Shown here: positions 949 to 57,613 of the stretch, in pieces | Layout of the letters: every line of letters starts with the position of its first letter | Position numbering within the stretch: the stretch's first letter is position 1 | DNA from: an uncultured Bacillota bacterium | Lineage (GTDB): Bacteria; Bacillota_I; Bacilli_A; RF39; UBA660 | Length of the DNA: 64,000 nucleotides | NCBI GenBank assembly: GCA_900317975.1 | Contig: ONIZ01000001.1 | Location: 135,479 to 199,478, forward strand | Direction: 5' to 3' | Made by a program: the position numbers and the translations under genes | Notes under the pieces: generated by a model | Told to the model about the DNA's origin: nothing | The model's database searches: none | What the model saw: only the letters and a program-made list of their open reading frames with translations

Positions 949-965
949 TATATAATTAAAAATAA
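949..965 (-). promoter_or_regulatory. motif A (plus-strand reading TATATAATTAAAAATAA; gene-sense TTATTTTTAATTATATA), copy 1
   Basis: Exact 17-mer, 21 nt upstream of the ATG at 927. No plus-strand gene lies to its right, so it must serve the minus-strand gene. Confidence 0.5.
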
Positions 966-978
966 TTTTTTTAGACGA

Positions 979-1008
979 AAAGAGAGCTATATTTCTATAA
1001 CTCTCTTT
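979..1008 (-). terminator. weak stem-loop downstream of the 1044..2120 gene
   Basis: aaagagag (979..986) pairs with ctctcttt (1001..1008) around a 14-nt loop. A short U run follows on the minus-strand transcript. Confidence 0.3.
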
Positions 1009-1043
1009 ATGTTTTTTCTTAAGTTGTATATTAACTATTTATA

Positions 1044-2807: not shown

Positions 2808-3836
2808 ATGATTAATAATCAATTATTGTATATTGGACTAAACGGTTTAGCAGGATCAGGGAAAGACACACTTGCAAAAATGCTTAATGTAATACTAATG
2901 AAAGATTGGAAAAACATTGATGAATGTAAAGAATTCTATGATAAATTCTATGTTCGTCCTAATGTTTCTGCAACATATTATGAAAAGACAAAAGAATATG
3001 ACAATAAAGTAATATGTCTGGCTTTTGCTGATCAGTTAAAGACAATATGTTCTGATATCTTCGGTATTCCACTTAAATATTTCTATTTCAACAAATCAAC
3101 CGCATGGGTATGTATCAACCATAATTTTGAATATACGGAAATACGTCCTGATAATGTTGTTACCTGTGAAGACTATTTCTATAATATATCAGAATATAGT
3201 GAATCAGAAACAAAATATTGGATGTCATTACGTGATGTACTTGTCTATATAGGAACATATGTATTGCAATCCGAAGTCAATAAGAATGTATTTGTCAATA
3301 TTGTCTCAAACAAGATAAACAATCTTTTATTGAAGAATCATAGTTTGTCTTATGCTATCATAACAGATGTAAGATTCACTCATGAGATTGAATTCATCAG
3401 AAAGAATAACGGAATAACAATCAAGATAATCAGGGATAGTGTTGTTCCTTTGTCAAATATTGCAGAGCATGATCTTGATGATGAAGACAGATATGATTAT
3501 GTAATCTACAATAATGATACCTATGATGACTTGTTCAATCAGGTATGGGATATTGTCCATAGTAACAAAGAGTTTGAAAATGATGTTGTAGATATGACAA
3601 CCAGAGAAAATATCAACAACTATTTGAGAAAGATTGATGAAGATGAATATCAGGTTTGTTCTCCCTATGGTATACAACAAATTGGTCATGAAAATGGAGA
3701 GATATCAATGATAGACCTAAAGGGCGGTCCAACAATTTATATAGATCAAGAGATACCCGGTACATCTATCATACCATATAGTATTGTTATGGATGAAAAT
3801 ACAAGTAAGTTCATAATAAAAGGGAATAGCGATTAA
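2808..3836 (+). CDS. deoxynucleoside monophosphate kinase (T4 gp1-like) with a C-terminal extension of about 90 aa
   Basis: P-loop GLNGLAGSGKDTLAKML. Later segments (SLRDVLVYIGTYVL, IITDVRFTHEIEFIR, IKIIRD, AEHDLD) run in the same order as T4 gp1 (SGKDT ... RRLMQALGTD ... VPDTRQDHEMD ... HVVRP ... HITE), recalled from memory. Confidence 0.65.
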   Translation: MINNQLLYIGLNGLAGSGKDTLAKMLNVILMKDWKNIDECKEFYDKFYVRPNVSATYYEKTKEYDNKVICLAFADQLKTICSDIFGIPLKYFYFNKSTAWVCINHNFEYTEIRPDNVVTCEDYFYNISEYSESETKYWMSLRDVLVYIGTYVLQSEVNKNVFVNIVSNKINNLLLKNHSLSYAIITDVRFTHEIEFIRKNNGITIKIIRDSVVPLSNIAEHDLDDEDRYDYVIYNNDTYDDLFNQVWDIVHSNKEFENDVVDMTTRENINNYLRKIDEDEYQVCSPYGIQQIGHENGEISMIDLKGGPTIYIDQEIPGTSIIPYSIVMDENTSKFIIKGNSD

Positions 3837-3846
3837 CTATTCCCTT
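3820..3846. terminator. bidirectional stem-loop between convergent genes
   Basis: Perfect 10-bp stem, aagggaatag (3820..3829) with ctattccctt (3837..3846), and a 7-nt loop that contains the stop codon of 2808..3836. Confidence 0.55.
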
Positions 3847-3851
3847 AGTTT

Positions 3852-4430
3852 TTATACTTTATTTTGTGGTAATGGTTTTATGTTAGTAAATGGAAATATT
3901 TCCCAATTTGGATTCTTGCATTTCCATTTTGTTATGTCTCCAATTGTCTTTAGCCGTTCACAACCTTGAAACATACATTTTAGATCTATGTCTTCAGTTA
4001 TATTCCAATTAGATATGTCCCCAATGTCTATAAGACTCCTACAGTTATTGAACATAAATGCCATGCTTTTCACATTAGATATATCCCAATTTTCTAATCC
4101 TATTACTTTTCGAAGATATTTGCAACCACCAAACATTGCAGATAGATTTGTAACATGAGATATATCCCAATCAGATACATCAACTTCAACAATGTTCCAA
4201 GATGAAAATGTATTTGAAAGATTTTTAATATTTGATATATCCACATTATTCATATCAAGAATATTACTTTCTCCAATCTTATCACTTATTATATGTTGTA
4301 GTTCTGAAAAATTCTTTGGAACAAGATTTGATTGAATATTGTCTCTTGATAACCTGAATTTCTCAGTTATATACCCATGCAAACATGGGATCCTTTCAGC
4401 TTCTGAAATATAGTGATTTAGGTTTTTCAT
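3852..4430 (-). CDS. DUF285 / BspA-related 26-residue-repeat protein with a CTS-like N-terminus
   Basis: Repeats: VSDWDISHVTNLSAMFGGCKYL, LENWDISNVKSMAFMFNNCRSL, ISNWNITEDIDLKCMFQGCERL. N-terminus is MKNLNHYISE. Confidence 0.65.
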   Translation of the reverse strand: MKNLNHYISEAERIPCLHGYITEKFRLSRDNIQSNLVPKNFSELQHIISDKIGESNILDMNNVDISNIKNLSNTFSSWNIVEVDVSDWDISHVTNLSAMFGGCKYLRKVIGLENWDISNVKSMAFMFNNCRSLIDIGDISNWNITEDIDLKCMFQGCERLKTIGDITKWKCKNPNWEIFPFTNIKPLPQNKV

Positions 4431-5011
4431 ACGTAATCAAATAGATGCAGTATATGTTTTGAAGATATCATTTTCTTAGTGATCTTTGGATTATTCTTTT
4501 CTGCATATCTCTTTATTGTCTGTCCAAGATTAAGATGTCTTATGTTATGAAAGAATGATTTGTCAACATGCCAATTGAATAGACAACAGTTGTATTCTTT
4601 TATTTCTTTTATGATATTTTCATCAAACCATAATGTAGTCCATGGCTTCTTTATTCCATACCATATCAATGCTGGGTATATATGTTCTAGACCAGTTATT
4701 TCATCAATGAATGATTTCTTAACTTTTTCATTTCCTCTTTCAAGTATTATTCTGAAATAAGCATCAGGATATTTTTCTGAAAAATATTTGCATAAGTTGT
4801 CAATTGACAAGAAAGAGAAGTCTTTTAATGTTGCCTTGTCATGACAGAATGTCCAATGCTTGTTCTTCAATGTTATACGAATATCAAAGAATCTTACATT
4901 TTCTGCGTATTGTTCATCTAATGTCTTCTTTTGGCATCTCCAGACAAATGAAAACAATTCATTGAAGAAATTAGACTTTAGATATGTTAAAGAATCATGT
5001 GTACCTATCAT
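4427..5011 (-). CDS. PI-PLC X-domain-like phosphodiesterase (tentative)
   Basis: MIGTHDSLTY resembles the PI-PLC (I)PGTHDS motif. NVRFFDIRI followed by FCHD resembles GIRxxDIR ... HHG. The protein is short at 194 aa. Confidence 0.4.
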   Translation of the reverse strand: MIGTHDSLTYLKSNFFNELFSFVWRCQKKTLDEQYAENVRFFDIRITLKNKHWTFCHDKATLKDFSFLSIDNLCKYFSEKYPDAYFRIILERGNEKVKKSFIDEITGLEHIYPALIWYGIKKPWTTLWFDENIIKEIKEYNCCLFNWHVDKSFFHNIRHLNLGQTIKRYAEKNNPKITKKMISSKHILHLFDYV

Positions 5012-5030
5012 CTAAATATATAAATATATT

Positions 5031-6674
5031 TTATTTTTGAATTCTAAGTTCAGAATATTCATCTTCAAGTAGATGCTTCTTAGCAGGATTTACAAGATAT
5101 GCTAATTTGCTCATTAAGTCTCTATTCAACAATACCTTTTGTTTCTTCTTTCTATTGTCAACTAAAGCAAACTTAGCATTAAGGAGTTTTCTTGTTCCTA
5201 TTTGGATGCATGGGATCTCTACAACTGTTCTTTCTTCAGTCACTTGTCCAACAATAGCTTTAGATACATCTACTTTCTTGAAGTTATATTCTTTTCCTTC
5301 AATTGTTGCAATGACATCATCACCTTGTATAGATATCTTCTCACAGCCAATTGTTGATGCCTTTGCTCCATTTCCAGTATCAAATTTTGCTTCAAATGTT
5401 ATCTCTTCTTCATTTTCCATTGTGAATGTAATGTCTTCAAGATATCCAACTGATTTTGGTGACAATACTAATTCATTTATGTCATTTATATTGTCTAATA
5501 ATATTTTGCAGAAATTTTCATCAATTACATCACTTATACCTTCCGTACCAGGAGAAGCATTGAATTCAAGAACAACGTTGTCACCAATTTCTGGATTTGA
5601 TCCCTTGACAAGTGGCATGATGTCAACAGCACACCAAGGCATTCCAGATATCTTTGCTACTTTAAGAGCTATCTCTTCTTGTTCTTTAGTCAATTCAACC
5701 TTTTCAGCAACAGCACCTAAAGAGACATTTGAACGGAAGTCACCACCAATCTTCTTACGTTTCATCTGAGCAAGAATCTTCTGTTTTGTTCTCATTGTCA
5801 ATACATGTACTCTTATGTCACCACCATCTGCTTCTTCTTTCTTCTGTACTAATAGTTCTCTTTCTTCATCAATAGCAAATATAGCTTGAAGGATTGAAAG
5901 AATAGTCTTGCCGTTTACCATGAATACACCAGTACCACCATGACCATCCAGGATCTTTACAACATATTCATATTTTTCAGATTCATCAGAATTCTGATCT
6001 TTATATATGTCTTTCAATTTCTTCTTAAGACTATCCATTCCGTCCTTTATGTCATTCTTAGATACTAATGTGAACTTTGGTTGTGGTATCTCATATCTTT
6101 CCATTAATACTGCGGACTGGTATTTGTTGCATGCCTTCTTCAATGACTGAGCAGGATTGATTACAAATATACCCCAGTTCTGGATTTCTTTTATACATTC
6201 CATACATTCTTCAGACTCTTGAGCTCCAAGACGAACAATAGCAATAGTATCAATATTTGACTGATGATCAATAGTATACTTAAGCTTATCATCCCATATA
6301 TCTATCTTGTCATCAGTTGCTTTATAGTTAAGCTGTTCTGCTACAAATATTTCTAGTTTGATGTCTTTTCCCTTTATAGCATCTTCCAAGTTCTTTAATG
6401 TCTTGTTCTTAGATGCATCTCTTTCATTAGTGAAGAACAATATATTTTTAAAGAAATATTCTTTGTTAGCTCCTAATGGGTCCTTTTCTGATGGTTCTAT
6501 ATCTAACTCATTTGTAGCTGATTTGTCTTCTTGTGATTCACCAGGTTCTTCAAGATCTACTGGATCAATAGCAGAATCATCTTTTGGCAATAAGTCATCA
6601 TCTGCTTCTAAGACTCTATTTATGTCATTCAAATTAGTCAGATAAGTATGTAAATGTTCTTTAAACTTTTTCAT
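5031..6674 (-). CDS. RimK-like ATP-grasp ligase fused to a C-terminal retropepsin-like (PF05618, ATP-dependent zinc protease / RimB-like) domain
   Basis: ATP-grasp motifs: GHGGTGVFMV, GGDIRVHVL, GGDFRSNVSLGA, CAVDIMP, LEFNASPG. C-terminal AKFDTGNGAKAS ... ALVDNR ... LLNRDL matches the AKIDTGARTSS ... LTDR ... LLGR pattern. The N-terminal region of about 70 aa is acidic. Confidence 0.7.
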   Translation of the reverse strand: MKKFKEHLHTYLTNLNDINRVLEADDDLLPKDDSAIDPVDLEEPGESQEDKSATNELDIEPSEKDPLGANKEYFFKNILFFTNERDASKNKTLKNLEDAIKGKDIKLEIFVAEQLNYKATDDKIDIWDDKLKYTIDHQSNIDTIAIVRLGAQESEECMECIKEIQNWGIFVINPAQSLKKACNKYQSAVLMERYEIPQPKFTLVSKNDIKDGMDSLKKKLKDIYKDQNSDESEKYEYVVKILDGHGGTGVFMVNGKTILSILQAIFAIDEERELLVQKKEEADGGDIRVHVLTMRTKQKILAQMKRKKIGGDFRSNVSLGAVAEKVELTKEQEEIALKVAKISGMPWCAVDIMPLVKGSNPEIGDNVVLEFNASPGTEGISDVIDENFCKILLDNINDINELVLSPKSVGYLEDITFTMENEEEITFEAKFDTGNGAKASTIGCEKISIQGDDVIATIEGKEYNFKKVDVSKAIVGQVTEERTVVEIPCIQIGTRKLLNAKFALVDNRKKKQKVLLNRDLMSKLAYLVNPAKKHLLEDEYSELRIQK

Positions 6675-6707
6675 GTATATATTATCTCATATATTTTATT
6701 ATGTTTC

Positions 6708-6724
6708 TATATAATTAAAAATAA
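6708..6724 (-). promoter_or_regulatory. motif A, copy 3
   Basis: Exact 17-mer, 33 nt upstream of the ATG at 6674. Confidence 0.5.
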
Positions 6725-6726
6725 AA

Positions 6727-6746
6727 TTTGACTATTTTAATATTAT
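6727..6746 (+). promoter_or_regulatory. motif B, copy 2
   Basis: tttgACTATtttaatattat, immediately after motif A and upstream of 6813. Confidence 0.45.
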
Positions 6747-6812
6747 GATAAGCCACATATAAATATGTTGATGATCATATGAAAAATATAAATATATGTA
6801 AAATATAGTTAA

Positions 6813-7373
6813 ATGAAGTTAATAATTATAGAGGGAACAGACAATGTTGGAAAAGATACACTTATTTCAAGAATTATGGAAAACTACGATGTAATGACAC
6901 TCATTCATTGTGGTAAGCCAAAGTCAAAAGATCATCCAAATGAATCACAGGACAGTTTATTCAATTTCTATATAAAAAGTATAATAAACAAGAAATATAA
7001 TAATTCAGATGTCATTATTATGAACAGATCTCATATAGGTGAAGCAGTCTATGGAGTATTATATAGGAATAGGGACATAAATGAAGTATTGAAGAAGATT
7101 CATGATTGGAATGTTGAGCTTATGAAATGTCCAGACCTTGAAGTAAAGTATATACAATTATTAAGTACATCCGAAAGACTATTGAAGAACAATGAAGATG
7201 GACAGTCATTATCAAAGGGAAATAGTTCTAATATAATAAAAGAAACAGCATTGTTTACAGAAGCATATGTAAAGTCATTTTTAGACAAGAAACTTATATA
7301 TGTAGATGATAATGGAGAATTCAGGACAAAAGAAGATATATTTGATGAAGCATGGGATTTCATTAATAAATAA
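6813..7373 (+). CDS. thymidylate-kinase-like P-loop (d)NMP kinase
   Basis: MKLIIIEGTDNVGKDTL matches the Tmk-type IEGxDxxGK(T/S)T P-loop. Size is 186 aa. Confidence 0.55.
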   Translation: MKLIIIEGTDNVGKDTLISRIMENYDVMTLIHCGKPKSKDHPNESQDSLFNFYIKSIINKKYNNSDVIIMNRSHIGEAVYGVLYRNRDINEVLKKIHDWNVELMKCPDLEVKYIQLLSTSERLLKNNEDGQSLSKGNSSNIIKETALFTEAYVKSFLDKKLIYVDDNGEFRTKEDIFDEAWDFINK

Positions 7374-7397
7374 AAAGATATTAGATAAGAAGATATT

Positions 7398-8102
7398 ATG
7401 ATTAAGACAGAAGATATATTGAAACAGTTCAAAGAAAAGTATGATAATAAAGATTTTAGAATAATTGGCAATAATGTACAGCAAGCAAAGACAATTGAGT
7501 TACAGAATGTACAGTTTGAAGTAGATAAGCCATGGATAGTAAGAGAACCAAACTATGATTATTTCAATAGAGAGCTTGAATGGTATAAGTCAGAATCATT
7601 GAATGTGAATGATATCCCAGAAGGTGCTCCAACAATGTGGAAGTCTTGTGCAACACCAATAGGATATATTAATTCAAATTATGGGTGGATGATCTGGTCT
7701 AAAGACAACTATAATCAATTTGATCATTGTCTACAAAAACTAATTGAGGATCCACATACAAGAGAGGCATGTATGATATATAATAGACCATCAATGCAGG
7801 AAGACTATAATAAATTTGGCATGCATGATTTTTGTTGTACATATTCTGTTCAATGTTTCATAAATGAAGACAAAGAAGGAAAGAAGCATCTAAAATATAT
7901 TGTATATATGAGAAGTAATGATGCAGTATTTGGATTTGATAATGATGCATTATGGCATAAGTATGTTCAGCAAATGCTAAGGAATAGACTTAGTGAACAT
8001 TTTAATGAAGAATTCATAGCAGACAATATTATATGGAATGCAGGATCATTACATATTTATGAAAGACATTTCAAATATTTAGAGGATGGACAAAACGAGT
8101 GA
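7398..8102 (+). CDS. deoxycytidylate 5-hydroxymethyltransferase (T4 gp42-like, thymidylate synthase superfamily)
   Basis: Long colinear matches to T4 gp42 as recalled: RELEWYKSESLNVNDIP, INSNYGWMIWSKDNYNQFDHC, MIYNRPSMQEDYNKFGMHDFCCT, YMRSNDAVFGFDNDALW, IIWNAGSLHIYERHF. The nucleophile Cys and the Asp that replaces the ThyA Asn are both present. Confidence 0.8.
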   Translation: MIKTEDILKQFKEKYDNKDFRIIGNNVQQAKTIELQNVQFEVDKPWIVREPNYDYFNRELEWYKSESLNVNDIPEGAPTMWKSCATPIGYINSNYGWMIWSKDNYNQFDHCLQKLIEDPHTREACMIYNRPSMQEDYNKFGMHDFCCTYSVQCFINEDKEGKKHLKYIVYMRSNDAVFGFDNDALWHKYVQQMLRNRLSEHFNEEFIADNIIWNAGSLHIYERHFKYLEDGQNE

Positions 8103-8676
8103 CATAAAGAGAAAGTTGTTAGATGAGCTTAAAGCTAATAATGTAAAAGATTGCGGATATAATTGCCAAAGTGGAAGAAGATATGTAGAAGTAAAGAATG
8201 CATTGTTTGAAGTTAACAAAGATCGTATTTTTGAAAACATTCCTAAATTGTCTTATATGGATGATTCTTGGTATGTAGCAAATTATGAGCCTTTGCTAGA
8301 AAGGAATGATCAATATAATAAATGCATTAATAAGTTGATTGAGAATCCAGCATCACGTCAAGCAGTTCTCATATTAGTAGATCCTAAAGAATATGACAAT
8401 GAAGACAAAACATTCATATGTACAATGTATATGCATATCTTTCTCAATCATATAGAAGAAAATAAATATGAATTGGAATATATTGTGCATATGAGGTCAA
8501 ATGATGCTATAGAATTCATAACCGATCATCAATGGCACCAGAAAATTTATTTTCGAATTTTTAATGAATTAATTGAGAAAACGAACTATATTATAATAAA
8601 GAAACCTATTGTTTGGAATGCAGATACTATTCATCTATATGAGCAGTTTTGGGATCAAGCAATAGACAATTATTAA
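8086..8676 (+). CDS. divergent second gp42/ThyA-family paralog
   Basis: FICTMYMHIF (Cys), HMRSNDAIEFITDHQWH (RSND plus Asp), IVWNADTIHLYEQFW. It lacks the N-terminal segment of about 40 aa. It overlaps the upstream paralog by 17 nt. Confidence 0.6.
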   Translation: MDKTSDIKRKLLDELKANNVKDCGYNCQSGRRYVEVKNALFEVNKDRIFENIPKLSYMDDSWYVANYEPLLERNDQYNKCINKLIENPASRQAVLILVDPKEYDNEDKTFICTMYMHIFLNHIEENKYELEYIVHMRSNDAIEFITDHQWHQKIYFRIFNELIEKTNYIIIKKPIVWNADTIHLYEQFWDQAIDNY

Positions 8677-8695
8677 CTTATAATATATATAGAGT

Positions 8696-9379
8696 ATGAA
8701 ACATAAGATATCCGCATCAATAATGTGTGTAGACAACCTATTAGATCTACAGTCAGAAATAAAGACATTAGAAGACATAGGTATTGACTATTTGCATTTG
8801 GATGCGATGGATGGGCATTTTGTAAATAATATTACATTTGGCCCAGATATTTTCAATGCTGTTCAAAAATGTTCTTCAATTCCTTGTGACTATCATCTTA
8901 TGCTTGATAATCCATTACCATTCATACAAAGACTTGATCTTAACAATAATGATATTGTGACTATTCATGCTGAGATTGATTCACAAAGATTTGAAGAAGC
9001 ATTTGAATATTTGAAGACATTAAAGAAAAGAGGAGTAAAGATAGGAGTAGCAATCAATCCGGGTACATCAATAGAATCATTGGTGAAATACTTGGATGAT
9101 ATTGATGTGATATTAGTCATGCTTATCAATCCTGGTTTTGCTGGTCAACCTATTATTGATGGAATATTACAAAAGCCTGTATATATCAGGAAATATCTAG
9201 ATTCACTTAATCATAAGAAGATAATGATATCTGTTGATGGTGGTGTATCAGTGGAAAGAGCAAAATATCTTTCAAAGAATGGTATAGACATGTTTGTTGG
9301 TGGTACTTCTGGTCTGTTCATAAAGAATAGTGATTTGAAAAAGAATGCAGAAATATTGAGAAAGAACATAAACAATTAA
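8696..9379 (+). CDS. rpe: ribulose-phosphate 3-epimerase family protein
   Basis: SIMCVD ... HLDAMDGHFVNNITFGP ... YHLML ... INPGFAGQ ... SVDGGV ... VGGTS is colinear with E. coli Rpe. Confidence 0.8.
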   Translation: MKHKISASIMCVDNLLDLQSEIKTLEDIGIDYLHLDAMDGHFVNNITFGPDIFNAVQKCSSIPCDYHLMLDNPLPFIQRLDLNNNDIVTIHAEIDSQRFEEAFEYLKTLKKRGVKIGVAINPGTSIESLVKYLDDIDVILVMLINPGFAGQPIIDGILQKPVYIRKYLDSLNHKKIMISVDGGVSVERAKYLSKNGIDMFVGGTSGLFIKNSDLKKNAEILRKNINN

Positions 9380-9413
9380 GACATAAATAAAACATAATAA
9401 TTAGATAATATAT

Positions 9414-11075: not shown

Positions 11076-11078
11076 GAT

Positions 11079-11993
11079 ATGAAGATAGCCGGAATTACAG
11101 TTGCTTACAATGAAGGTAATATGGTGAAATATGTAATGCCATATTATGAGAAAATGGGTATTGATAAATTGATAGTCTATGACAATATGTCTACTGATGA
11201 CATGTGTGAAAAACTTTCTAAATATCCATTTGTGGAGATTCGTCATTTTGATACTAATGGGAAGTTTGATGACAGAAAGAATTCTGATCTCAAGGAAGAA
11301 GTGTCTTATGAATTACTTCAAGAAGGATATGATTGGGTATATACTGGAGACTTTGATGAAATAGTCTATTGTGAAGGTGATTTCAAGAAGGAACTTGAGA
11401 AAATTGAGGAATTAGGTGGAACAGTACTTTGTAGAGACATGATCCAGCCATTCAATCCATTGCCTTATGACTTTGATGAGACAAAACTTATTCATGAACA
11501 ATGTACTCATTTCCTTACATGGCATGACTGGTCAAGTACATGGGGTGGATCAAAGGTATTGTTGAGAAGTAAGAAAGTACCGAAGATAAAGTTGTCATTA
11601 GGTGCCCATGGAACAGGATTTCCAAAGAAGGGTATTGAGACAGATCCAGTATTGTTTGGCTATCCTTTCATCACATTCCATCTCAAATATGTTGACTTTA
11701 CTGCATTAGAGCATAATTCTCACGAAAAGCATGCAAGAATACAATGGAGATTAGATGTCCCAACATGTACAGCAGTAGATGCATCATTTACAAAACGTCT
11801 TTATTCTCGTACAATGGGTGATGCTGGTATAAAGAATACTATAGATAAATTAATGAAGAAGACAAGTAAACTTAATATTGCTCCTGGTTGGGAATCATTC
11901 AAGGAATACTATGATAAAAACTATAAGATGAATATGACTAAATTTAAAAATATTAAACACGTAAAAAGATTAGATTATGAACAGAACAGCTGA
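11079..11993 (+). CDS. GT-A fold glycosyltransferase (GT2-like)
   Basis: ITVAYNEGNMV ... LIVYDNMSTDD ... GDFDEIV (DxD-like). Confidence 0.5.
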   Translation: MKIAGITVAYNEGNMVKYVMPYYEKMGIDKLIVYDNMSTDDMCEKLSKYPFVEIRHFDTNGKFDDRKNSDLKEEVSYELLQEGYDWVYTGDFDEIVYCEGDFKKELEKIEELGGTVLCRDMIQPFNPLPYDFDETKLIHEQCTHFLTWHDWSSTWGGSKVLLRSKKVPKIKLSLGAHGTGFPKKGIETDPVLFGYPFITFHLKYVDFTALEHNSHEKHARIQWRLDVPTCTAVDASFTKRLYSRTMGDAGIKNTIDKLMKKTSKLNIAPGWESFKEYYDKNYKMNMTKFKNIKHVKRLDYEQNS

Positions 11994-13323: not shown

Positions 13324-13332
13324 ACAATATAT

Positions 13333-15126: not shown

Positions 15127-15152
15127 GTAAAATAATTGTGAATTTTTTCCGT

Positions 15153-15177
15153 AATGAACTATATTATATATGTAAAA
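15153..15177 (+). promoter_or_regulatory. motif B, copy 6
   Basis: aatgaACTATattatatatgtaaaa, about 30 nt upstream of the small ORF at 15198. Confidence 0.45.
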
Positions 15178-16077: not shown

Positions 16078-16131
16078 TAAAATGTTAATATAAGTTAAAA
16101 ACTTTTATCAAATTTTGAATTATTATTAAAT

Positions 16132-47253: not shown

Positions 47254-47270
47254 TATATAATTAAAAATAA
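47254..47270 (-). promoter_or_regulatory. motif A, copy 5
   Basis: Exact 17-mer, 27 nt upstream of the ATG at 47226. Confidence 0.5.
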
Positions 47271-48116: not shown

Positions 48117-48161
48117 ATTATTTTAAGTTTTTTCTTAATATTTAATTGAAATAATCTTAAT

Positions 48162-48180
48162 ATGTTACTATATTGATATT
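48162..48180 (+). promoter_or_regulatory. motif B, copy 8
   Basis: atgttACTATattgatatt, about 20 nt upstream of the ATG at 48201. Confidence 0.4.
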
Positions 48181-48584: not shown

Positions 48585-48618
48585 CAGAAAAGAAGAAGCT
48601 AGTCTTCTTCTTTTTCTG
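48585..48618. terminator. bidirectional stem-loop that overlaps the stop of the minus-strand gene
   Basis: cagaaaagaagaag pairs with cttcttctttttctg, with one bulge. Loop is ctagt. Confidence 0.5.
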
Positions 48619-49225
48619 TGTCTATAAATACAAAATCTAGATTTGAATATTTTATTTCTACTTTGAATGTTTGTGATTGTGCTAATGGAACATTATAGTT
48701 AAGATCTAGCATATCTATACCATTTATTACAGGATCATATACAATTATTTTTGAGTATATTTCTCCAATATTGTTGAATATATTTATAGATATCTGATCA
48801 GGCATTTCTTTATATTCTGTATCTCTTGAATATTGATAGAAGAAGTTTTCAAACATCAAGAAATAGTTCACATACCCAAGTGTATGCCTGAATATGATGT
48901 TCAATGTCTTGTCAATTAAAGCTATAGGGTTCTTTTCTGCTCTATATGTGTATTCTGAAGATGTATGCATGAATTGATTTGGCTTCTTTCTCCATTCTTT
49001 TCTAATAGGCTCTCCAGTACCAGTCTGTTGCTGTTGTACTGTTCCTTCATTAAACCCTAATATTTGCACTGATTGAATGGTCTCATTAAGAAAATCAATA
49101 GGTCTATATAGATAACTTTTGTTCTTACTAATGATCTTACTATACTTTTCATTCAATTCTGGTGCTATGAAATTATCTGGTAACTTCAATTCAAAAAGAT
49201 CTTGTCTTCCGGGTAATGTAAACAT
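48599..49225 (-). CDS. hypothetical tail-associated protein (immediately downstream of the tape-measure-like gene)
   Basis: 208-aa ORF, assigned by position only. Confidence 0.5.
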   Translation of the reverse strand: MFTLPGRQDLFELKLPDNFIAPELNEKYSKIISKNKSYLYRPIDFLNETIQSVQILGFNEGTVQQQQTGTGEPIRKEWRKKPNQFMHTSSEYTYRAEKNPIALIDKTLNIIFRHTLGYVNYFLMFENFFYQYSRDTEYKEMPDQISINIFNNIGEIYSKIIVYDPVINGIDMLDLNYNVPLAQSQTFKVEIKYSNLDFVFIDTEKEED

Positions 49226-49257: not shown

Positions 49258-52200
49258 TTAGTGTTTGCCCTGGCCATTTGCTTTATTTTTAATATTGTAC
49301 TTATTTGCATCTTGTGCTTGTTTCGCGCTATCAGGGGTTGTTCCACCTTGTCCGTTTGGGTTATTTGGAGGAACTACCTTAATTGGATTACCTGGTGTGC
49401 TTCCTCCTGTATCTCCTCCTTCATCTCCATTATCAGGGTTTGGTGTATCATCAGGTGCTTGTGATTTGACCACAATATTCAATGGTTGCTGTATAAGTGT
49501 TTGAACATTCTTGATAGCTTCTGTAATCTTGCTATGACGACGGATTTGGATTTCATCTGCCTTATTAATTGTTTCTTTAGATTCTTCAAGTCTATTTGCA
49601 AGTTCATTCAATACATAACTTAATCTATTAGCTAATGCATCTGTCAAATTATCTAAGTTACCCATCTTCTTAGCAAGTTCATTCAATTCTCTTACTAATT
49701 GAGTTAAAGCATTTGTTCTTCGAAGATCTATACTATTTATAGTCTTTACATATTTTGCTAATAGATCAGTATTTGCTTTGAATGTATTAGTGCTCTTTTG
49801 ACTAGACATTGAACTGTATATTTGTTCAATTGATATTCTCAATGTAGATGCATTCATCAATGCCATTGGATTGAATCTAATTACAGTATCAATATATTTT
49901 CCTAATGATTCACTAACAATATCTAGATTTGTCTTGCCCCATGATGTCTCTATATCTATGTCAAATACCTTTGCTAAATTTGTTAAGTTTTGTTGTAATG
50001 CAGATATAATGGTTGGTTCTATTTTCTTAGAATTTTCCATTGTTACCACTATTTGGTCAATTGCTGCTTTAAAATTATTTATAGAGTCAATTGTATTTTT
50101 ATTGACCGATAACTTAATACCAGTCAACAATGTATTTAATGTAGCATTAACAGTATTAATATCTATCAATACATTCTTTAATAATGAATTATCTGCCTCC
50201 CATGTTCTAAATAATGTCAATATTGGATCATAGAATTTTTCTAATATGTCAGTTATGATATTGGTTCCCTTTTTATTATCTTTAATGTAATTAATCTTTG
50301 CCAAATCAATCTTCCCAGTATAAGAATCAATTATTTCTGCAGATATATCAATTATTTCTTGTACAGTATCAGCAACATCTTGTAAAGAATTGACTATTAT
50401 TTGATTGCTTTCTTCATTTTGCTTACGAACATTTTCATTATATAGTTGTTTAATTGTTTGATCTGCTGATTGTCCAGATATAAGATCTTGTAGTTTTACA
50501 AATGAAATGAAAATATCATGTATATCAGCAAATAGTCCTATTGTAGATTCAATATTTGCTTTTGATTGTTGTTTATATTTGAATAACTGAGATATAACAT
50601 CTGTATTTTCAAGTATTGGTTTGAAACTATTGATGACTGACTTTATTGTTGTTGTTATTTCAGTAATTGCTGACTGTATTTGAGCAGATGTATTTATAAG
50701 ATTCTTTAATGTGACATCATCAATTGCTATTGCCTTTTCATTCTTTGCGGTATCTTCATCAAATATTGTCAATAGACTTGATATTATGTGTCTTGCTTTT
50801 GATTTTGCTTGTGTTATTTGATCTTCTTTAAATGAAATATATCCTTTAGCATTTCCATCTTTGTCATAGCCATTAGCAATCTTCATTTCTGCTATTTCTT
50901 TTAATGTGTTTGCAGATTTTTTGATGATTTTGTTGATTGAATCATTTACATGAAGTATGCCTGGTAATTTTTGATCAATTTGTTGCTTTTGTAAAGTATC
51001 GTATGATGATATTAAGCTTTTTCCTATAGAAGTTATCATATCAGGAATTGTTTTCTTAATATTGTCAATAACAGTTTTGATATTTATCTTTTCATATTCT
51101 ATGACTTGGCCCTGATCATTTATTTTCTTAGGTATTTGGGCTGTTCCAATCTTTACAACAGAATCAACAATATTTGCAACTATTTTAGTAATACCAGATA
51201 TTGAAGAAACAGCTTGACCAAATAATGAGTCTTTACCTTCTTTGAACAAATGCGGGTTCTTTTCTACAACACCTATTAATGTAGTTGATACTGAAGTAAC
51301 TATTTGTTTTATTGTTGTTGATAAAGCTGTTTGTATTTCAGTCATATTAAGTTTTTCCCATTTATCTGGTTGACCAGTCTTAGGATCATAATGAGATGGA
51401 ACTAATGCATTAGCAATCTTTACAATTGCATCGGTAGTATTACTTACAATCTTAGATATACCACTAACAGAATCAACAACTTCCTTAAGATTACCTGTTG
51501 GTTGATTATCAGCAGTAAATAAGAATTGCTTATATGGATTTTTACTAAATGTATCTACTAATGCTTTTCCGATACCAATTGCAATTGCAGCAACATTAAT
51601 AGCAGCATTTTTGTAATCATCCTCTTTCATTTCTCTGAATTCAATTGGCTTACCTGTCTTAGGATCCCATTTATAAGGTATTTGATTATTTGCTAACTTT
51701 ATTATTCCATCAGCCATTCCTGAAACAAGTTCATTAACTGGCATAATAGATTCTAATACAGTCTTCATTGTACCATCAGTAAATCTTTCATCACCAGCAT
51801 ATTTTACTAATGAATCTAATATGCTTGTAATGATAGAACCAATAGCTTCTCCTGATGCTCTAAAATCTTCCGGTGTTACATCAACATAACTAATTGGATG
51901 TCCTTTATCATCCCAATCATTAGGAACTTGTAGTTTTGCTATATCTTTTATTCCCTTACCGACATTTGCTATTAGTTCAGATACTTTGAATGATGTTTCT
52001 ACAACTGTTCCTATTTTTGAATTTTTCTTTCCTATTCCAAATACACCATCATTACCATCAAATAATGAGCCTACTGTTATGCCATCTTCTCCATCAATTG
52101 GTTTATAATATAGGTTAGCTAATGAAGAAATAACTGCAGTCAATATATTTCCTACGCTTTTGCCCATATCATTAAAATCATTACTATTTAATGTTTTATA

Positions 52201-55200
52201 TTCAGTTGGGTGTCCCTTATCATCCCAATCTATAGGAATTTGTAGTTTTGCAATATCTTTGATGCCTTGTCCAACATTTCCAATTAATTCAGAAATTCTA
52301 AATGACAAATCAATAACTTGAGATATCTTTGATTTTGTAGCACCTAATCCAAATAATCCATTAGAATCTCCAGCAAGTAAATTATCCCATTCTGCTTTTG
52401 ATATACCTGAATTATTATCATTCAAAAATTCACCACTGGCAATCTTTCCTAATGTAGTAAACATTGTTGTGAGTACTGTTGTAATGTTTGTTCCTGCATC
52501 AGTAAAATCTTTTTTCCTTAATTGTCTAAATGATATTGGTTTTCCTTGATCATTCCATTCAATAGGTATTTGTAGTTGAGCAATATTTCCAACAGCTTCA
52601 CCAACAGAACTTATTACTTTACTAACCTTCATTGACAAATTCATTATTCTAGATAATGGATCTTCACCAATCAATCCTAATACAAATGAATTTGCAAAAC
52701 TAAATCCAGAACCTTCTAATTCAGTATAAACCTTATTAAGTTCTTTAACCATTGTTGTCAATATTGTTCCAACATGCTGACCAGCTAAATCAAAATCAGT
52801 TTCTCGTAATTGTCTATATCTAACAATATTTCCTTTTTCATCCCATTCAGCTGGGATTTGAAGTTTTGCTATTTCATAAATTGATTTTCCAACTGTTCCT
52901 GTGATATATGCTATCTTTCTTGATATTGACATTAAGTAAAGAAGTTTCATTTCCATCTTACCTGCACCAACAACTTTACCAATTGCTTTTCCAATCCAAT
53001 TATTACCAACAGCATTAGCAATTTCGCTATCTGATGGCATTGAGACTTTATTTGGAATATTCATGAAGTTTTCAATATTTGAAGATATTGTATCTATTCC
53101 AGATTTTAGATCAATGTTTTGTATTGACTTAACTGCTTCTGCCATCATTGAGACAGTATCTGTTATTCCTCTTATAGTTCTTCTAATAGGTATTACACTA
53201 AATGCGGTTGCTACAGCAATAGGAGCAATTTTAGATATTCCTTCAAACAATTTGAGCATTGAACCAGCCTTAGGATCTTTATTTGTAACAGTCAAAGACA
53301 ATTTATTGATACTATCTGTTATAGTATTTCCATGTTTCTTCATGATGTCATTAACATAAGCAATAGAACTACCATAGATGAACAGTATTTCACCCATAGC
53401 TATTAATGTAGCTCCACCTGCCGCAACTGGAATACCGATTAATGGATTTGCTACAAGTGAACCAATTGCCCAGAAGAATGCCCCATAAGCTCCAACAGAA
53501 GCAACAAATAAAGCCATGTTAGCAAAAAATTCTCCAAAACTTATTTCATTGAAAAGACTATTTAGATAGAATAATGAACTGCCATATATTGCAAGAGTGA
53601 GACTCATAAGAATAAGTATACCATTAGCAAGTAGCATATCTGTTTTGTCTATGCCTTTAGCTGCTAATGACATTAATTTAAGTGTACCAACCATTATAAG
53701 TTCCATAAGGCCAACCTTAGCAACCGTATCAAATCCTATTTTCATTTGATCAATCAACCAAACTACTCCGCTAAATACTCCTAATGATAGACTTATTTCG
53801 CCAATTATTATTGATGCTTCTCTAACTTCCTTTTCTTTTAATGATATCTTAGATTTTCCTGTTAACAACTCATAGAATTTACCTAAAGCAAACATTAATG
53901 CTGTCATGACTGCAACTTTTACAAGAACCAATGCTTCTGTAGGATCCTCAAATGGGAACATCTCATCAATAGCTTTTACAACACCAGCAAATATAAGTAA
54001 TGATCCAGATATGAGAGCTAATGTTTTTGCTCCTTCTTGTACATCCTTCTGGTGTTCATCAAGTGTCTTCATTATAGCTATTATTGACCATGTAAATCCT
54101 GCTAATAAAGCAGCATAGCCACCAACAACTAATGGTCCATATTGACTCATAAATGTCGCACCACTTAAGATGATGAAATGCATAGCACCAACAAATAGCA
54201 TGAATCCCATAAGTCCTGATCCCTTGGTTGCTGAAGTAAGAGATCCCGCTATGCCACCTTTACTTATTCCCATTACAGATAAAGTCTTGATTGCCTGAAT
54301 AGCAGCAATTGGAATTAGCATCATATCAACAAAGGCAGTAATAAGACCAGCATAAAGAATTGCAGATCCCCAGGCATTAGCAGTCTTCATATATGCTGTA
54401 CCTGTCAATAGAATACCATGCATTACTGCAACAAACAAGGAGAATGGTTTAAGACTATCTAAAGCCCTTTTATCAAAACCATCTGTTATTCTTTTAGAAG
54501 CTAATCCCATACCAGCAATAAATCCATCAAATACTGCCGCGTATTCAGCACCAGCTAGTACTCCGTATTTCTTTGTAAACAATATACCTGTTGTCAATAT
54601 ACCATGCATTGTTGCTAAGAATATTGAGAACGGTTTGAGACTATCTAATGTTTTCTTGTTAAATAATTCAATAATTGTTTCGGATACTTTACCCATGTAT
54701 TTAATGAATCCTAACAATACAGTAGCATATTCAATAGCAGCCAATGCTCCAAATTTCTTTATGAATGTTGCCCCCATTACTAAGCATCCTGTACAAACAG
54801 CAAGGAATAGACTAAATTGCTCCATTTGAGCTGCAGTAGAAGATTTAAGTAATGAATTGATTGGCTTTGTTGCAGCAATAACACCAACAATAAATAATGC
54901 TAATAGTTTTGTATAGTCTAAAGCATATTTTGCCATCATGCCGTTCTTCATTGACATAAACAATGACCCTACTAATAGGCATGTTGTAGTGGTGAACATA
55001 AATAATGCAAATGTCTTTAATGATGCTAATGCCGTTCCCTTTACAAGATTAAACAATAAGAATGGAGCAATTACACCAGCTTCAAATAGCATCAATAATC
55101 CTGTAAATTCTAATGCCGCTTTAACATATTTGCCTCCCTTCAATTCCATGAACAAAGCACCAACTAGTAAAATGATTGTACAAGATACAATTACAGAATT

Positions 55201-57555
55201 AAATGCTTTAAGACCACTGAATATTTGTCCATTGATCATGCTAAATAATAAGAACGGAGCAACTACTAATGCTTCAAATGTCATTAACAATAGACCAAAT
55301 GCTAATGCATTGACAACAAATTTACCACCACCCATTTCTATGAATAATGCACCAATTGAAAGTACTATAGTACAAACTATTATTAATGAGGTAAATTCAG
55401 TTATTGATCTATCTACACCATCTGAATACTGAGAATATAGAATGAATGGAGCAATGACTAATGCCTCAAATGCCATTAATACTAAGCCAAATTTCAAAGC
55501 ATTTTCAACCATCTTACCATTACTCATACTCATAAACAAAGCACCAACCAATAAGATAGTTGTACATGTTATAAGGAATGAGTTGAAATCTCTTAATGTT
55601 GGGAACAACTTATTTGCTTCATTTTTGAATATCATGAATGGTAATACTACTAATGCTTCAAATATCATTAGAACAACACCAAACTTCAATGCATTCTTGA
55701 CAAGTGCTCCATTACTTAATCCCATGAACAAAGCACCAATGAGCATTACCATTGTACAAGTAACAACAAATGAATTTAGATCTTTTAGTCCCTTTATTGC
55801 ATCTGAACTGTATTTCTTAAACAATAATATTGGGGCAATTATTAATGATTCAAATACGGCTAATGTTACGCCAAACAATAATGCATTTTCAACAAACTTA
55901 CCACCACCCATCATCATAAATAATGCACCAATTGACATTACAATAGTAGAAGTTATCATGAATGAGTTAAGTCCTTCTATTGTTACCAATGATTCTTTGA
56001 TTTCCTTTTGATGATTATTTACATCTACAGCAGTTTCAACAATTGTATGATTAACATTTTTGATTTTTTGTGCAGCTGCTTCCGCTTGATCTGCTGACTG
56101 CCCAAGAACACTTATCTTTTGAATCATTTCATTGAACAAATCAATATTTTCTTTCAATGATTTGACATTTTCTTTGTCAAAATCAAAGAATGTTTGAATA
56201 ATGTTCATGAAATTCGTCAACGCTTTAACAGTTTTCTTGTCATCACTTAACTTAACTAATTTCAAAAGACTATCAAGTGCATCATCATTTAATCCTGATA
56301 TAATAAGTTCAACTTGCATCTTTTGATCAGGTAATTTGTTCTTAAGAAGTGACTTATTTGCCTTTATTAGATCTCCAATACTTGTCTTTAGATCATTAAC
56401 AATTGTCTTAAATTCAGGATCAACATTAGTTGTAACTGTATTAGGAATTAGTTCATCAAACTTTAAAGTCTTTAGATTCTCTAAATTGTCATTTAATGTT
56501 GATAAATTAGCTGAAATATTAGATAAAAAGTTTAAACCAACAAGTGAGTCATTATACATTTTTAATTTATCAATAAATGTTGTTATTGTTTGAATATAAC
56601 TATCATATGCCGGTTGAACTAACTTATCTAATAATGTCTGATTATTAATATTAATTTTCTCAATTAAGCTTTCTGATATTGTTTTATTTATATCATTTAA
56701 TGATTTTATAATATTATTAATAATATTTTGATCAATAACAGCTGATTTATTAGTTTCATCATTATTTATCGGTTTTATATTATTGAATTGATTAAAAAAC
56801 TTTGACAAATTAAATGAACTTAAAGCTGTACATAATGTATCTATCTTATTATTAATATCATTTAATTTTTGTTCACTATTTTTAAATAAATCTTTAATAT
56901 CTAATACTTTTAGTAATTGATTAATTCCTTGAATATGTTTATCACTGATTGTAGTTAAACCGTCAATACTATTCTTTAATGTATCAATATGTGTTATAAT
57001 TTCTGGGTCTATTATACCTGTTGATACATTAGAAGATACATCTGGCTGTTCTAACTTTTTATTTAATATTTGTTCAAATTGAGTATAATTACTTGCTATA
57101 GCATTAAGACTATTAACTAAATTACTATTTAATGCTTGTATTGATTCGGTATTTGTACTCATTAGTTTACCAAATTCTACAAATGATGTATTAATAAACT
57201 TATCTAATGATGAATCAATACTATTTACAGCTGATTTAATAGTCTTTCCATCATCCTTTGAACCAATAGCATCTTTAATCTCATCTAATAAAGAATATAT
57301 AGAATTATTATTTCCTAATATTGAAGTTCCACCCGCCTTCTGCTTTGATTTGTTTCCTAAATCTGTTGGGTTCTTAACCTGATCATCACCAACATAGAAA
57401 CTAGCCATTGTTTTACTAATTCCTTCTGATAAGTTTTGAAGAAGATCTTTTATTGTTGCTTCTACACCAGGTATAGCTCCAGCTTTTATAATTTCTTCTG
57501 GATTTCCCGCTCTTTTATTTCCAAATCTTGAAGTATTATTTTCTTTCTTGGCCAT
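49258..57555 (-). CDS. giant tape-measure-like protein (2765 aa): N-terminal coiled coil, a long multi-helix hydrophobic array, eight soluble repeats, and a basic G/P-rich tail
   Basis: Assigned from its size, extended heptad-like low-complexity sequence, internal tandem repeats and tail-module context. Confidence 0.65.
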   Translation of the reverse strand: MAKKENNTSRFGNKRAGNPEEIIKAGAIPGVEATIKDLLQNLSEGISKTMASFYVGDDQVKNPTDLGNKSKQKAGGTSILGNNNSIYSLLDEIKDAIGSKDDGKTIKSAVNSIDSSLDKFINTSFVEFGKLMSTNTESIQALNSNLVNSLNAIASNYTQFEQILNKKLEQPDVSSNVSTGIIDPEIITHIDTLKNSIDGLTTISDKHIQGINQLLKVLDIKDLFKNSEQKLNDINNKIDTLCTALSSFNLSKFFNQFNNIKPINNDETNKSAVIDQNIINNIIKSLNDINKTISESLIEKININNQTLLDKLVQPAYDSYIQTITTFIDKLKMYNDSLVGLNFLSNISANLSTLNDNLENLKTLKFDELIPNTVTTNVDPEFKTIVNDLKTSIGDLIKANKSLLKNKLPDQKMQVELIISGLNDDALDSLLKLVKLSDDKKTVKALTNFMNIIQTFFDFDKENVKSLKENIDLFNEMIQKISVLGQSADQAEAAAQKIKNVNHTIVETAVDVNNHQKEIKESLVTIEGLNSFMITSTIVMSIGALFMMMGGGKFVENALLFGVTLAVFESLIIAPILLFKKYSSDAIKGLKDLNSFVVTCTMVMLIGALFMGLSNGALVKNALKFGVVLMIFEALVVLPFMIFKNEANKLFPTLRDFNSFLITCTTILLVGALFMSMSNGKMVENALKFGLVLMAFEALVIAPFILYSQYSDGVDRSITEFTSLIIVCTIVLSIGALFIEMGGGKFVVNALAFGLLLMTFEALVVAPFLLFSMINGQIFSGLKAFNSVIVSCTIILLVGALFMELKGGKYVKAALEFTGLLMLFEAGVIAPFLLFNLVKGTALASLKTFALFMFTTTTCLLVGSLFMSMKNGMMAKYALDYTKLLALFIVGVIAATKPINSLLKSSTAAQMEQFSLFLAVCTGCLVMGATFIKKFGALAAIEYATVLLGFIKYMGKVSETIIELFNKKTLDSLKPFSIFLATMHGILTTGILFTKKYGVLAGAEYAAVFDGFIAGMGLASKRITDGFDKRALDSLKPFSLFVAVMHGILLTGTAYMKTANAWGSAILYAGLITAFVDMMLIPIAAIQAIKTLSVMGISKGGIAGSLTSATKGSGLMGFMLFVGAMHFIILSGATFMSQYGPLVVGGYAALLAGFTWSIIAIMKTLDEHQKDVQEGAKTLALISGSLLIFAGVVKAIDEMFPFEDPTEALVLVKVAVMTALMFALGKFYELLTGKSKISLKEKEVREASIIIGEISLSLGVFSGVVWLIDQMKIGFDTVAKVGLMELIMVGTLKLMSLAAKGIDKTDMLLANGILILMSLTLAIYGSSLFYLNSLFNEISFGEFFANMALFVASVGAYGAFFWAIGSLVANPLIGIPVAAGGATLIAMGEILFIYGSSIAYVNDIMKKHGNTITDSINKLSLTVTNKDPKAGSMLKLFEGISKIAPIAVATAFSVIPIRRTIRGITDTVSMMAEAVKSIQNIDLKSGIDTISSNIENFMNIPNKVSMPSDSEIANAVGNNWIGKAIGKVVGAGKMEMKLLYLMSISRKIAYITGTVGKSIYEIAKLQIPAEWDEKGNIVRYRQLRETDFDLAGQHVGTILTTMVKELNKVYTELEGSGFSFANSFVLGLIGEDPLSRIMNLSMKVSKVISSVGEAVGNIAQLQIPIEWNDQGKPISFRQLRKKDFTDAGTNITTVLTTMFTTLGKIASGEFLNDNNSGISKAEWDNLLAGDSNGLFGLGATKSKISQVIDLSFRISELIGNVGQGIKDIAKLQIPIDWDDKGHPTEYKTLNSNDFNDMGKSVGNILTAVISSLANLYYKPIDGEDGITVGSLFDGNDGVFGIGKKNSKIGTVVETSFKVSELIANVGKGIKDIAKLQVPNDWDDKGHPISYVDVTPEDFRASGEAIGSIITSILDSLVKYAGDERFTDGTMKTVLESIMPVNELVSGMADGIIKLANNQIPYKWDPKTGKPIEFREMKEDDYKNAAINVAAIAIGIGKALVDTFSKNPYKQFLFTADNQPTGNLKEVVDSVSGISKIVSNTTDAIVKIANALVPSHYDPKTGQPDKWEKLNMTEIQTALSTTIKQIVTSVSTTLIGVVEKNPHLFKEGKDSLFGQAVSSISGITKIVANIVDSVVKIGTAQIPKKINDQGQVIEYEKINIKTVIDNIKKTIPDMITSIGKSLISSYDTLQKQQIDQKLPGILHVNDSINKIIKKSANTLKEIAEMKIANGYDKDGNAKGYISFKEDQITQAKSKARHIISSLLTIFDEDTAKNEKAIAIDDVTLKNLINTSAQIQSAITEITTTIKSVINSFKPILENTDVISQLFKYKQQSKANIESTIGLFADIHDIFISFVKLQDLISGQSADQTIKQLYNENVRKQNEESNQIIVNSLQDVADTVQEIIDISAEIIDSYTGKIDLAKINYIKDNKKGTNIITDILEKFYDPILTLFRTWEADNSLLKNVLIDINTVNATLNTLLTGIKLSVNKNTIDSINNFKAAIDQIVVTMENSKKIEPTIISALQQNLTNLAKVFDIDIETSWGKTNLDIVSESLGKYIDTVIRFNPMALMNASTLRISIEQIYSSMSSQKSTNTFKANTDLLAKYVKTINSIDLRRTNALTQLVRELNELAKKMGNLDNLTDALANRLSYVLNELANRLEESKETINKADEIQIRRHSKITEAIKNVQTLIQQPLNIVVKSQAPDDTPNPDNGDEGGDTGGSTPGNPIKVVPPNNPNGQGGTTPDSAKQAQDANKYNIKNKANGQGKH
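50761..52953 (-). repeat. eight tandem coding repeats of 82 to 110 aa
   Basis: Anchor IAKLQIPxxWDxKGxPxxYxxLxxxDF occurs at about aa 1565, 1661, 1771 and 1875. Degenerate copies occur at 1957, 2051, 2140 and 2225. Confidence 0.75.
54046..55971 (-). repeat. about ten tandem coding copies of a 62 to 65-aa two-helix hydrophobic hairpin module
   Basis: Modules start at aa 529, 593, 657, 721, 785, 849, 914, 976 and 1038, with a less regular copy at 1117. Example: LNSFxxTxTxVMxIGALFMxxxxGKxVENALKFGxVLMxFEALVxAPFxLF. Confidence 0.8.
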
Positions 57556-57596
57556 AGTTAAAATTTTCTAAATCAATATTGAAATATATTATTCTA

Positions 57597-57613
57597 TATA
57601 TAATTAAAAATAA
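57597..57613 (-). promoter_or_regulatory. motif A, copy 6
   Basis: Exact 17-mer, 41 nt upstream of the ATG at 57555. Confidence 0.5.

Follow-up and report, generated by a model that had tools for sequence, protein, structure and literature searches.

A 17-nucleotide promoter-like element at the head of tail- and particle-type gene blocks in a very large uncultured phage

The window considered here is a stretch of 64,000 nucleotides, bases 135479-199478 of contig C82 (410,106 bp, 29% G+C), which is a very large uncultured phage (410 kb). On its + strand the exact 17-mer TATATAATTAAAAATAA occurs six times, at window positions 949, 2718, 6708, 19116, 47254 and 57597; in gene sense, on the - strand, it reads TTATTTTTAATTATATA, and it is termed motif A below. 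A preliminary description of the window had read these copies as a candidate late promoter, lying 18-41 nt upstream of the ATG with which a - strand operon begins and heading every minus-strand virion block. The positions and spacings were confirmed (gaps of 21, 23, 33, 18, 27 and 41 nt, in the same order). The locus raises the question of what kind of signal this is, which genes it serves and what reads it. The analysis indicates that motif A is very probably a promoter. On balance, and with less confidence, it is taken as a phage-specific promoter class for tail, fibre and particle-type genes, read by the host core RNA polymerase together with a phage sigma factor, after a second class, motif B, has been in use.

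Each - strand gene block of the window has a copy of motif A at its head; for the block that leaves the window at its right end, an exact copy lies at window coordinate 64408, 408 nt beyond the window. The copies and the genes behind them are as follows.

949 to 965, - strand: exact copy, 21 nt before ATG 927 of the tail-fibre-like gene 1-927, which runs off the window.
2718 to 2734, - strand: exact copy, 23 nt before ATG 2694; heads genes 2173-2694 and 1044-2120, of no known function.
6708 to 6724, - strand: exact copy, 33 nt before ATG 6674; heads a RimK-type ATP-grasp gene (5031-6674), gene 4427-5011 and a DUF285 gene (3852-4430).
19116 to 19132, - strand: exact copy, 18 nt before ATG 19097; heads genes 18438-19097, 17728-18441 and 17370-17765, of no known function.
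26798 to 26814, - strand: degenerate copy TTATTTTTAAATATAAA with 2 mismatches, 37 nt before ATG 26760.
30809 to 30824, + strand: variant TTATTTTTAATATATA, one base shorter, 33 nt before ATG 30858.
47254 to 47270, - strand: exact copy, 27 nt before ATG 47226 of a 2865-aa protein (38629-47226), followed by 37989-38645 and 37021-37863.
57597 to 57613, - strand: exact copy, 41 nt before ATG 57555 of a 2765-aa protein (49258-57555), followed by 48599-49225.
59234 to 64000, - strand: part of a giant gene (1714 aa) that extends beyond the window, with the exact copy at 64408 lying 29 nt before its ATG.

Several of these genes resemble parts of a phage particle. Gene 1-927 matches tail-fibre PHROGs (best 3.7e-11), and the C-terminus of the 2865-aa protein is formed by an endosialidase-chaperone domain, as is typically found in tail fibres and spikes. 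The block behind the degenerate copy comprises 26347-26760, 24704-26320 (BspA-LRR and Big_2 domains), 23755-24678, the tail-fibre-like 22082-23716 and 21621-22058; the 332-aa protein that starts at ATG 30858 matched no family. The degenerate copy had been described correctly, and the shorter + strand variant is present as well, at a measured distance of 33 nt rather than 32. The broader statement, that the motif heads every minus-strand virion block, holds insofar as every - strand block is so headed; however, the copy at 949 lies between two co-directional genes and is thus internal to its block, and not all downstream genes have been shown to encode virion proteins.

The occurrence of motif A exceeds what A+T-richness would produce, as had been argued. 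The exact 17-mer was absent from 100 dinucleotide-preserving shuffles of the window. C82 as a whole carries 14 exact copies and 13 with one mismatch; the remaining 102 contigs of its genome bin (1.9 Mb, 103 contigs) carry none. The null for these counts was a third-order Markov model trained on the contig's own intergenic DNA; it predicts 0.01, 0.5 and 4.9 intergenic sites at up to 0, 1 and 2 mismatches, against 14, 27 and 39 observed. A motif search of the whole genome had been proposed in the preliminary description, and it showed that the copies are not scattered inside genes at random orientation: all 27 with at most one mismatch are intergenic, and 25 of them have a same-strand ATG no more than 53 nt downstream. 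A relaxed pattern (TTATTTTTAA, 0-2 nt, TATAWW) finds 34 sites in C82, 33 intergenic and 32 correctly oriented, at a median of 29 nt from the ATG, the distance ranging over 13-53 nt. The intergenic regions between co-directional genes of the contig contain 32 sense and 4 antisense occurrences of the 9-mer core. Motif A is found on both strands of C82, always co-oriented with its gene, so the apparent restriction to the minus strand was an accident of the gene layout of the window. It is therefore a non-random, strictly intergenic element, co-oriented with genes and close to their start codons, and this strict co-orientation and intergenic placement support the earlier view of a promoter-like signal rather than a symmetric operator. 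A scan of IMG/VR for the exact 17-mer was uninformative, returning mostly single chance matches in A+T-rich contigs.

The anatomy of the element is that of a long -10-type box. In the 27 aligned sites no information content is present in the 40 nt upstream or the 60 nt downstream of the 17-mer, which means that there is neither a -35 element nor a larger repeated cassette; a hexamer 16-18 nt upstream, as in a bipartite sigma-70-type promoter, is thus not part of motif A, and the unrelated flanks led to rejection of the repeated-cassette reading. What is present is a co-oriented, A+T-rich -10-like element near the gene start (TTATTTTTA/TATATA, at the distances given above). Most copies end in TATATA at the 3' side and a minority (five copies) in TATAAA. 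An upstream hairpin of -8 kcal/mol or stronger accompanies 4 of 34 motif A sites and 7 of 35 motif B sites; the one just upstream (in gene sense) of the copy at 949 reaches -15.3 kcal/mol. Since hairpins are no commoner at motif A than at motif B, the T-run of the motif is not generally part of a terminator, and a terminator reading was rejected on this count.

Motif B is the contrasting class. It is bipartite, TTGAAT-N14-ACTATATTA, with the consensus tATTGAATTtTt-N-ACTATATTAt.a.TGTAAtt (i.e. TTGAAT, 16 nt, TATATT), and its TTGAAT stands at a fixed distance, in contrast to motif A. Relaxed forms read CTATWTTW, the upstream box being optional. The family comprises approximately 50-80 oriented intergenic copies across C82, and for CTATATTA alone the contig has 44 sense and 2 antisense occurrences. 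Its members in the window are listed below.

57633 to 57660, + strand: TTGAAA-N14-ACTATATT, an example of motif B heading + strand genes.
15158, 16137, 19105, 47289 and 48167: other ACTATATT boxes.
2770, 6732, 19164 and 29034: CTATTTTA boxes.
15128-15175, 16107-16150, 48137-48180 and 57633-57675: regions of the motif B family.

In divergent regions the two motifs stand back to back. The copy of motif A at 2718 faces a B-type promoter (TTGAAT at 2747, CTATTTTA at 2770) of the + strand gene 2808, a dNMP kinase; the copy at 19116 adjoins the + strand ACTATATT box 19105-19112, the copy at 47254 is divergent with the + strand ACTATATT box at 47289, and the copy at 57597 with a full B-type promoter (TTGAAA at 57633, ACTATATT at 57653) of the + strand gene 57686. 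Motif B heads the + strand genes for dNMP kinase, a thymidylate-synthase-like protein, a methyltransferase and OmpA in the window, and a helicase gene elsewhere in C82. Motif B belongs to genes of nucleotide metabolism and replication and to the sigma gene described below, in relatives as well as in C82. Gene functions thus divide between motif A and motif B. A side observation concerns the + strand cluster at 2808-15109, which encodes the dNMP kinase, a PPK2/thymidylate-kinase-like protein, the thymidylate-synthase-like protein, a weak nucleotidyl-transferase match, a family-2 glycosyltransferase and a C5 cytosine methyltransferase; this content suggests a DNA base hypermodification pathway.

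The same division is seen in the remainder of C82. Motif A stands directly before the tail sheath gene (phrog_34521, 5e-96), before a tail tube-like gene that is followed by the gene of a 3234-aa protein, and before the gene of a 1490-aa protein; the giants that it heads span 1.5-3.2 thousand aa. It also heads genes of other kinds, and the class is accordingly enriched in particle-type genes and not limited to proven virion genes.

Some further genes of this class deserve mention in their own right. Three arrays of DUF285/phrog_3649-type paralogues (150-280 aa), at C82 250339-257188, 266330-272510 and 291053-295736, are each headed by motif A, and 3852-4430 is the lone copy of this type in the window. 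A homing endonuclease gene (phrog_3339, 1.9e-44; C82 117176-120814) carries a one-mismatch copy and lies just upstream of the gene for the C-terminal part of NrdD, an arrangement that recalls the intron and homing-endonuclease insertions in T4 nrdD. Left of the window, in the same - strand block as gene 1-927, C82 127580-133231 encodes an 1883-aa protein with a glycoside hydrolase family 2 TIM barrel and chitobiase/Fn3-associated domains, which is probably a tail-borne polysaccharide depolymerase. A 428-aa protein (C82 214263-215549; window coordinates 78785-80071, outside the window) is encoded behind an exact copy of motif A. Database homologues at E <= 1e-5 number 387; among them the best-scoring 120 are 53-98% identical, some on contigs of up to 428 kb. 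The leader of its gene, AAATATACCAAATAAAA, is conserved, and in several relatives the gene has its own upstream word, TTTTATTATTATATA, instead of motif A. It was considered as a candidate major capsid protein, but the AlphaFold model (pLDDT 79) shows neither a significant PDB match nor an HK97 fold. A second general late motif, TTATTATTATATA, was considered and rejected as specific to one gene.

A candidate reader of motif A is encoded on the contig itself. C82 has one gene of the sigma-70 family, at 248436-249674, with a GTG start and 412 aa; its product matches PF04542 (region 2) at 5.7e-7 and phrog_351 at 3.9e-25, with a weak region 4. Region 2.1-2.2 aligns to SigA structures, and our reading of the sequence against sigma A suggests that the equivalent of region 2.3-2.4 follows after an insertion of about 60 aa, with the residues that read the -10 element changed relative to sigma A. 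The gene is preceded by a B-type box in C82 and by the full motif B in the related contigs G002, G003 and G004, and never by motif A. Its leader (C82 248390-248440) could fold into a short CCC(C)...GGG(G) hairpin immediately ahead of the start codon, with similar pairing possible in the relatives L215-L218; such a hairpin may serve translational control of the sigma factor.

Other polymerases and factors were sought on C82. Pfam models of beta, beta' and T7-like polymerases gave matches on a host contig only or none at all, with nothing on C82; for the T7-like model PF00940 nothing was found in the genome, which is weak evidence as the controls were silent too. Signatures of polymerase catalytic motifs A and C yielded no candidate on C82, and a single DADYDGD match was rejected as the TOPRIM motif of a topoisomerase-like protein. 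The giant proteins contain no polymerase domains. The preliminary description had pointed to a gp55-like late sigma; with T4 gp55 and gp45 as queries, phmmer returned no match at E <= 10 in the six-frame translation of C82 (gp47 alone matched), although very distant homologues would escape such a search, and the candidate reader is instead a two-domain protein of the sigma-70 family.

Conservation in related phages separates the core of motif A from its lineage-specific part. The relatives are six IMG/VR contigs that carry a homologue of the sigma factor at 51-72% identity, three of which were analysed in full. In G001 (74 kb, 40% G+C), no other oriented 10-mer upstream of genes is as frequent as TTATTTTTAA, and all 9 copies of TTATTTTTA are intergenic, most of them 21-79 nt before a called ATG; the bases that follow the core differ there from ATTATATA. 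The same core precedes start codons in G003 (376 kb) and in G002. Orthologues were defined as reciprocal best hits, at approximately 50% amino-acid identity. Among those of G003, the core lies upstream of 11 of the 21 whose C82 counterpart has it and of 10 of the 126 whose counterpart does not (Fisher p = 5e-6); for G001 the corresponding numbers are 5 of 7 and 2 of 31 (Fisher p = 8e-4). The genes that keep the core include the ATP-grasp gene 5031-6674 (in both G001 and G003), the genes for the 2765-aa and 1714-aa giants (in G001), the 219-aa gene behind the copy at 19116 (in G003) and the tail sheath gene. As judged from these comparisons, the clade-level determinant is the 5' part, TTATTTTTA(A), with the 3' ATTATATA specific to the lineage of C82. 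Lak-A1 and LR756500 were set aside as comparators, being too distant (about 22% protein identity); 5-6 one-mismatch copies are all that they have, and inspection by eye showed no obvious analogue.

The nature of the phage bears on the question of what reads its promoters. C82 encodes tail sheath, tail tube-like and tail-fibre-like proteins as well as genes for nucleotide metabolism and replication; most of its total of approximately 480 genes have no known function, and 10% of the contig is intergenic. Distant relatives of one 1130-aa protein are found only in the jumbo phages PAU, Lak, Tenacibaculum pT24/PTm and Chryseobacterium MA9V-2, and a megablast of 4 kb against GenBank phages gave no match. 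The rpoB of the bin is nearest to those of uncultured gut Bacilli metagenome-assembled genomes. A Shine-Dalgarno-like word precedes 6% of C82 genes, compared to 57-78% on the Bacilli contigs, and the G peak at -12 to -6 is missing on C82, as it is on a crAss-like contig (C78) of the same bin. No spacer-like links between C82 and the rest of the bin were found; CRISPR-spacer-like matches were rejected, as only A+T-rich 22-27-mers matched, by chance. C82 is thus probably not a phage of the Bacilli organism of the bin and has been mis-binned. The placement of the contig in a Bacilli bin is accordingly no guide to naming its host.

The reading that we favour would unite these observations in a two-step programme. 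The host holoenzyme would read motif B, giving expression of the metabolism and replication genes and of the phage sigma; this sigma would then redirect the host core polymerase to the -35-less TTATTTTTA(A), whereby the genes for tail and fibre and further late-type genes, along with a small number of other genes, would be switched on. The recognition determinant would be a single extended -10-like TTATTTTTA(A) with no -35 partner, and the ATTATATA that is invariant in this lineage would probably cover the melting and start-site region. Transcription would start a few bases downstream of motif A, giving leaders of roughly 10-50 nt. We infer all three of the elements on which this programme depends, namely the start at motif A, its late timing and the phage sigma as its reader; the label 'late' is to be understood in this sense.

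The closest analogue is the Staphylococcus Kayvirus vB_SauM-515A1, for which experimental mapping found many early promoters of the sigma-70 type with -35 and -10 elements, and fewer late ones, in which a long -10 box, TGTTATATTA, stands without a -35; the phage encodes a sigma factor, and its late class heads morphogenesis genes, with one late promoter before a homing endonuclease gene (PMC7698491). The two-class programme, the -35-less late box and the phage's own sigma are common to both phages: C82 likewise has a long -10-type box without a -35 before its tail sheath and tail tube genes, and a sigma-70-family factor of its own. They differ in the box (TGTTATATTA there, TTATTTTTA(ATTATATA) here) and in lineage, which is unrelated; moreover, 17 nt are invariant here, and C82 is known from sequence alone. 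The late promoters of T4 (TATAAATA at about -10; gp55, gp33, gp45) are, like motif A, single A+T-rich elements of the -10 region without a -35, and they too head late virion and homing endonuclease genes; the TATAAA end of five copies of motif A is a further similarity. In C82, however, the conserved determinant is the upstream TTATTTTTA, and the sigma has both regions 2 and 4. The resemblance to T4 that had been seen in the TATATA end did not survive, since TATATA is lineage-specific and TATAAATA shows no orientation bias (21 sense vs 14 antisense in co-directional intergenic regions of C82).

Several points weigh against the favoured programme. The homing endonuclease gene, a DnaK operon and the ATP-grasp gene are also headed by motif A, so that 'virion only' would be too narrow a description. 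Region 4 of a sigma factor normally reads the -35 element; the C82 sigma has a region 4 although motif A has no -35, and by anatomy alone the bipartite motif B is the better fit for a two-domain sigma. The core TATTTTTA is one base off the Bacteroidota -7 box TAnnTTTG and is compatible with recognition by a host sigma. The relatives were chosen via their sigma gene, and the co-occurrence of sigma and motif among them is therefore partly by construction. Finally, C82 lacks Shine-Dalgarno signals, in contrast to the Bacilli contigs with which it was binned, and canonical Bacteroidota promoters are all but absent from it as well.

These points lend some weight to other readers. Motif A could be read by, or with the help of, an unidentified phage activator that replaces the -35 contact, or by an unrecognised phage RNA polymerase, the phage sigma then serving motif B; we regard this as rather unlikely. 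A contiguous, sharply bounded and near-invariant block directly upstream of genes is typical of activator sites and of the promoters of single-subunit polymerases, such as those of the T7 class (~17-23 nt), the geometry of the -35 and -10 elements of motif B would suit a sigma with regions 2 and 4, and most of the genes of C82 have no known function. Yet the searches described above revealed neither a T7-like polymerase nor a homologue of beta or beta' on C82, the catalytic motifs gave no candidate there, and the giants are free of polymerase domains; the 40% G+C relative keeps only a core of 9-10 nt, the size of a -10-type element. Furthermore, the sigma gene itself lies behind motif B in C82 and its relatives; unless virions bring the sigma with them, motif B has to be active before any of it has been made.

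It is likewise improbable that motif A is a strong -10-only promoter for the primary sigma of the host, with no phage factor involved and with motifs A and B differing in strength or regulation. The primary sigma of Bacteroidota reads a -33 TTTG and a -7 TAnnTTTG, and the motif A core T-TATTTTTA-A is identical to the latter at 7 of 8 positions, with TATTTTTA matching TAnnTTT-. The lack of Shine-Dalgarno signals is shared with Bacteroidota and their phages, the distant kin of C82 include Lak, PAU and Tenacibaculum phages, and the B core CTATWTTA and the A core TTATTTTTA are alike. On the other hand, the last base of the motif A core is A and not G, and there is no -33 TTTG at a distance of 19-21 nt, in keeping with the earlier statement that the motif does not resemble the Bacteroides consensus. 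The canonical TTTG-N19-21-TAnnTTTG has 1 copy in the 410 kb of C82, compared to 6-7 in the crAss-like contig of the bin, and TA..TTTG shows no sense bias in C82. The sharp split of gene functions between the two motifs, the 17 invariant bases, which go far beyond the needs of a housekeeping -10, and the presence of the phage's own sigma behind motif B also argue against this reading.

It is very improbable that motif A is no promoter at all and instead belongs to a terminator, acts in the RNA leader, or serves as an operator or as a site for recombination or homing: its T-richness and the four copies that directly follow strong hairpins, the T-run merging into the motif, would suit such a role, but the hairpins are no commoner than at motif B, the motif lacks dyad symmetry, six copies of the window lie in divergent regions where no upstream gene ends, the varying distance to the ATG does not fit a fixed ribosome-site element, and the unrelated flanks do not fit a mobile cassette.

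One further repeat of the window stands apart from both motifs. The preliminary description had mentioned a string, ATATGTTATATATT, shared just upstream of the ATGs 23716 and 26320; it is indeed present, as a 14-mer at 23726-23739 and 26328-26341 (gene sense AATATATAACATAT), ending 9 and 7 nt before these ATGs. Only two copies occur in the window; an internal promoter, a context for translation start that the two genes share, or chance could each account for them.

The logic of a phage late promoter with a -10 element only is already known from T4 and the Kayvirus, whereas the sequence of motif A, its clade and its 17-nt invariance were not found described in the literature searched; nor was any description found there of the transcription programme of such very large gut phages, none of which is cultured. 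It is conceivable, though tentative, that a clade-specific sigma, common to a large, unstudied group of 200-430-kb gut phages, recognises its promoters by TTATTTTTA(A); the conserved neighbouring 428-aa protein has hundreds of database homologues. This would be a minimal sigma switch, in which the A core differs from the early core CTATWTTA only by its leading base and an extra T, together with the loss of the -35. In the lineage of C82, ATTATATA could then be where the sigma, a second factor or an unrecognised polymerase makes an additional contact. For work in vitro, the sigma gene and an element of 10-17 nt form a concrete pair. The two-motif grammar allows hundreds of unidentified genes to be sorted into expression classes by sequence only, and motif A could thereby point to proteins that are likely to belong to the virion or to be injected, for instance the ATP-grasp enzyme and the products of the DUF285 arrays.

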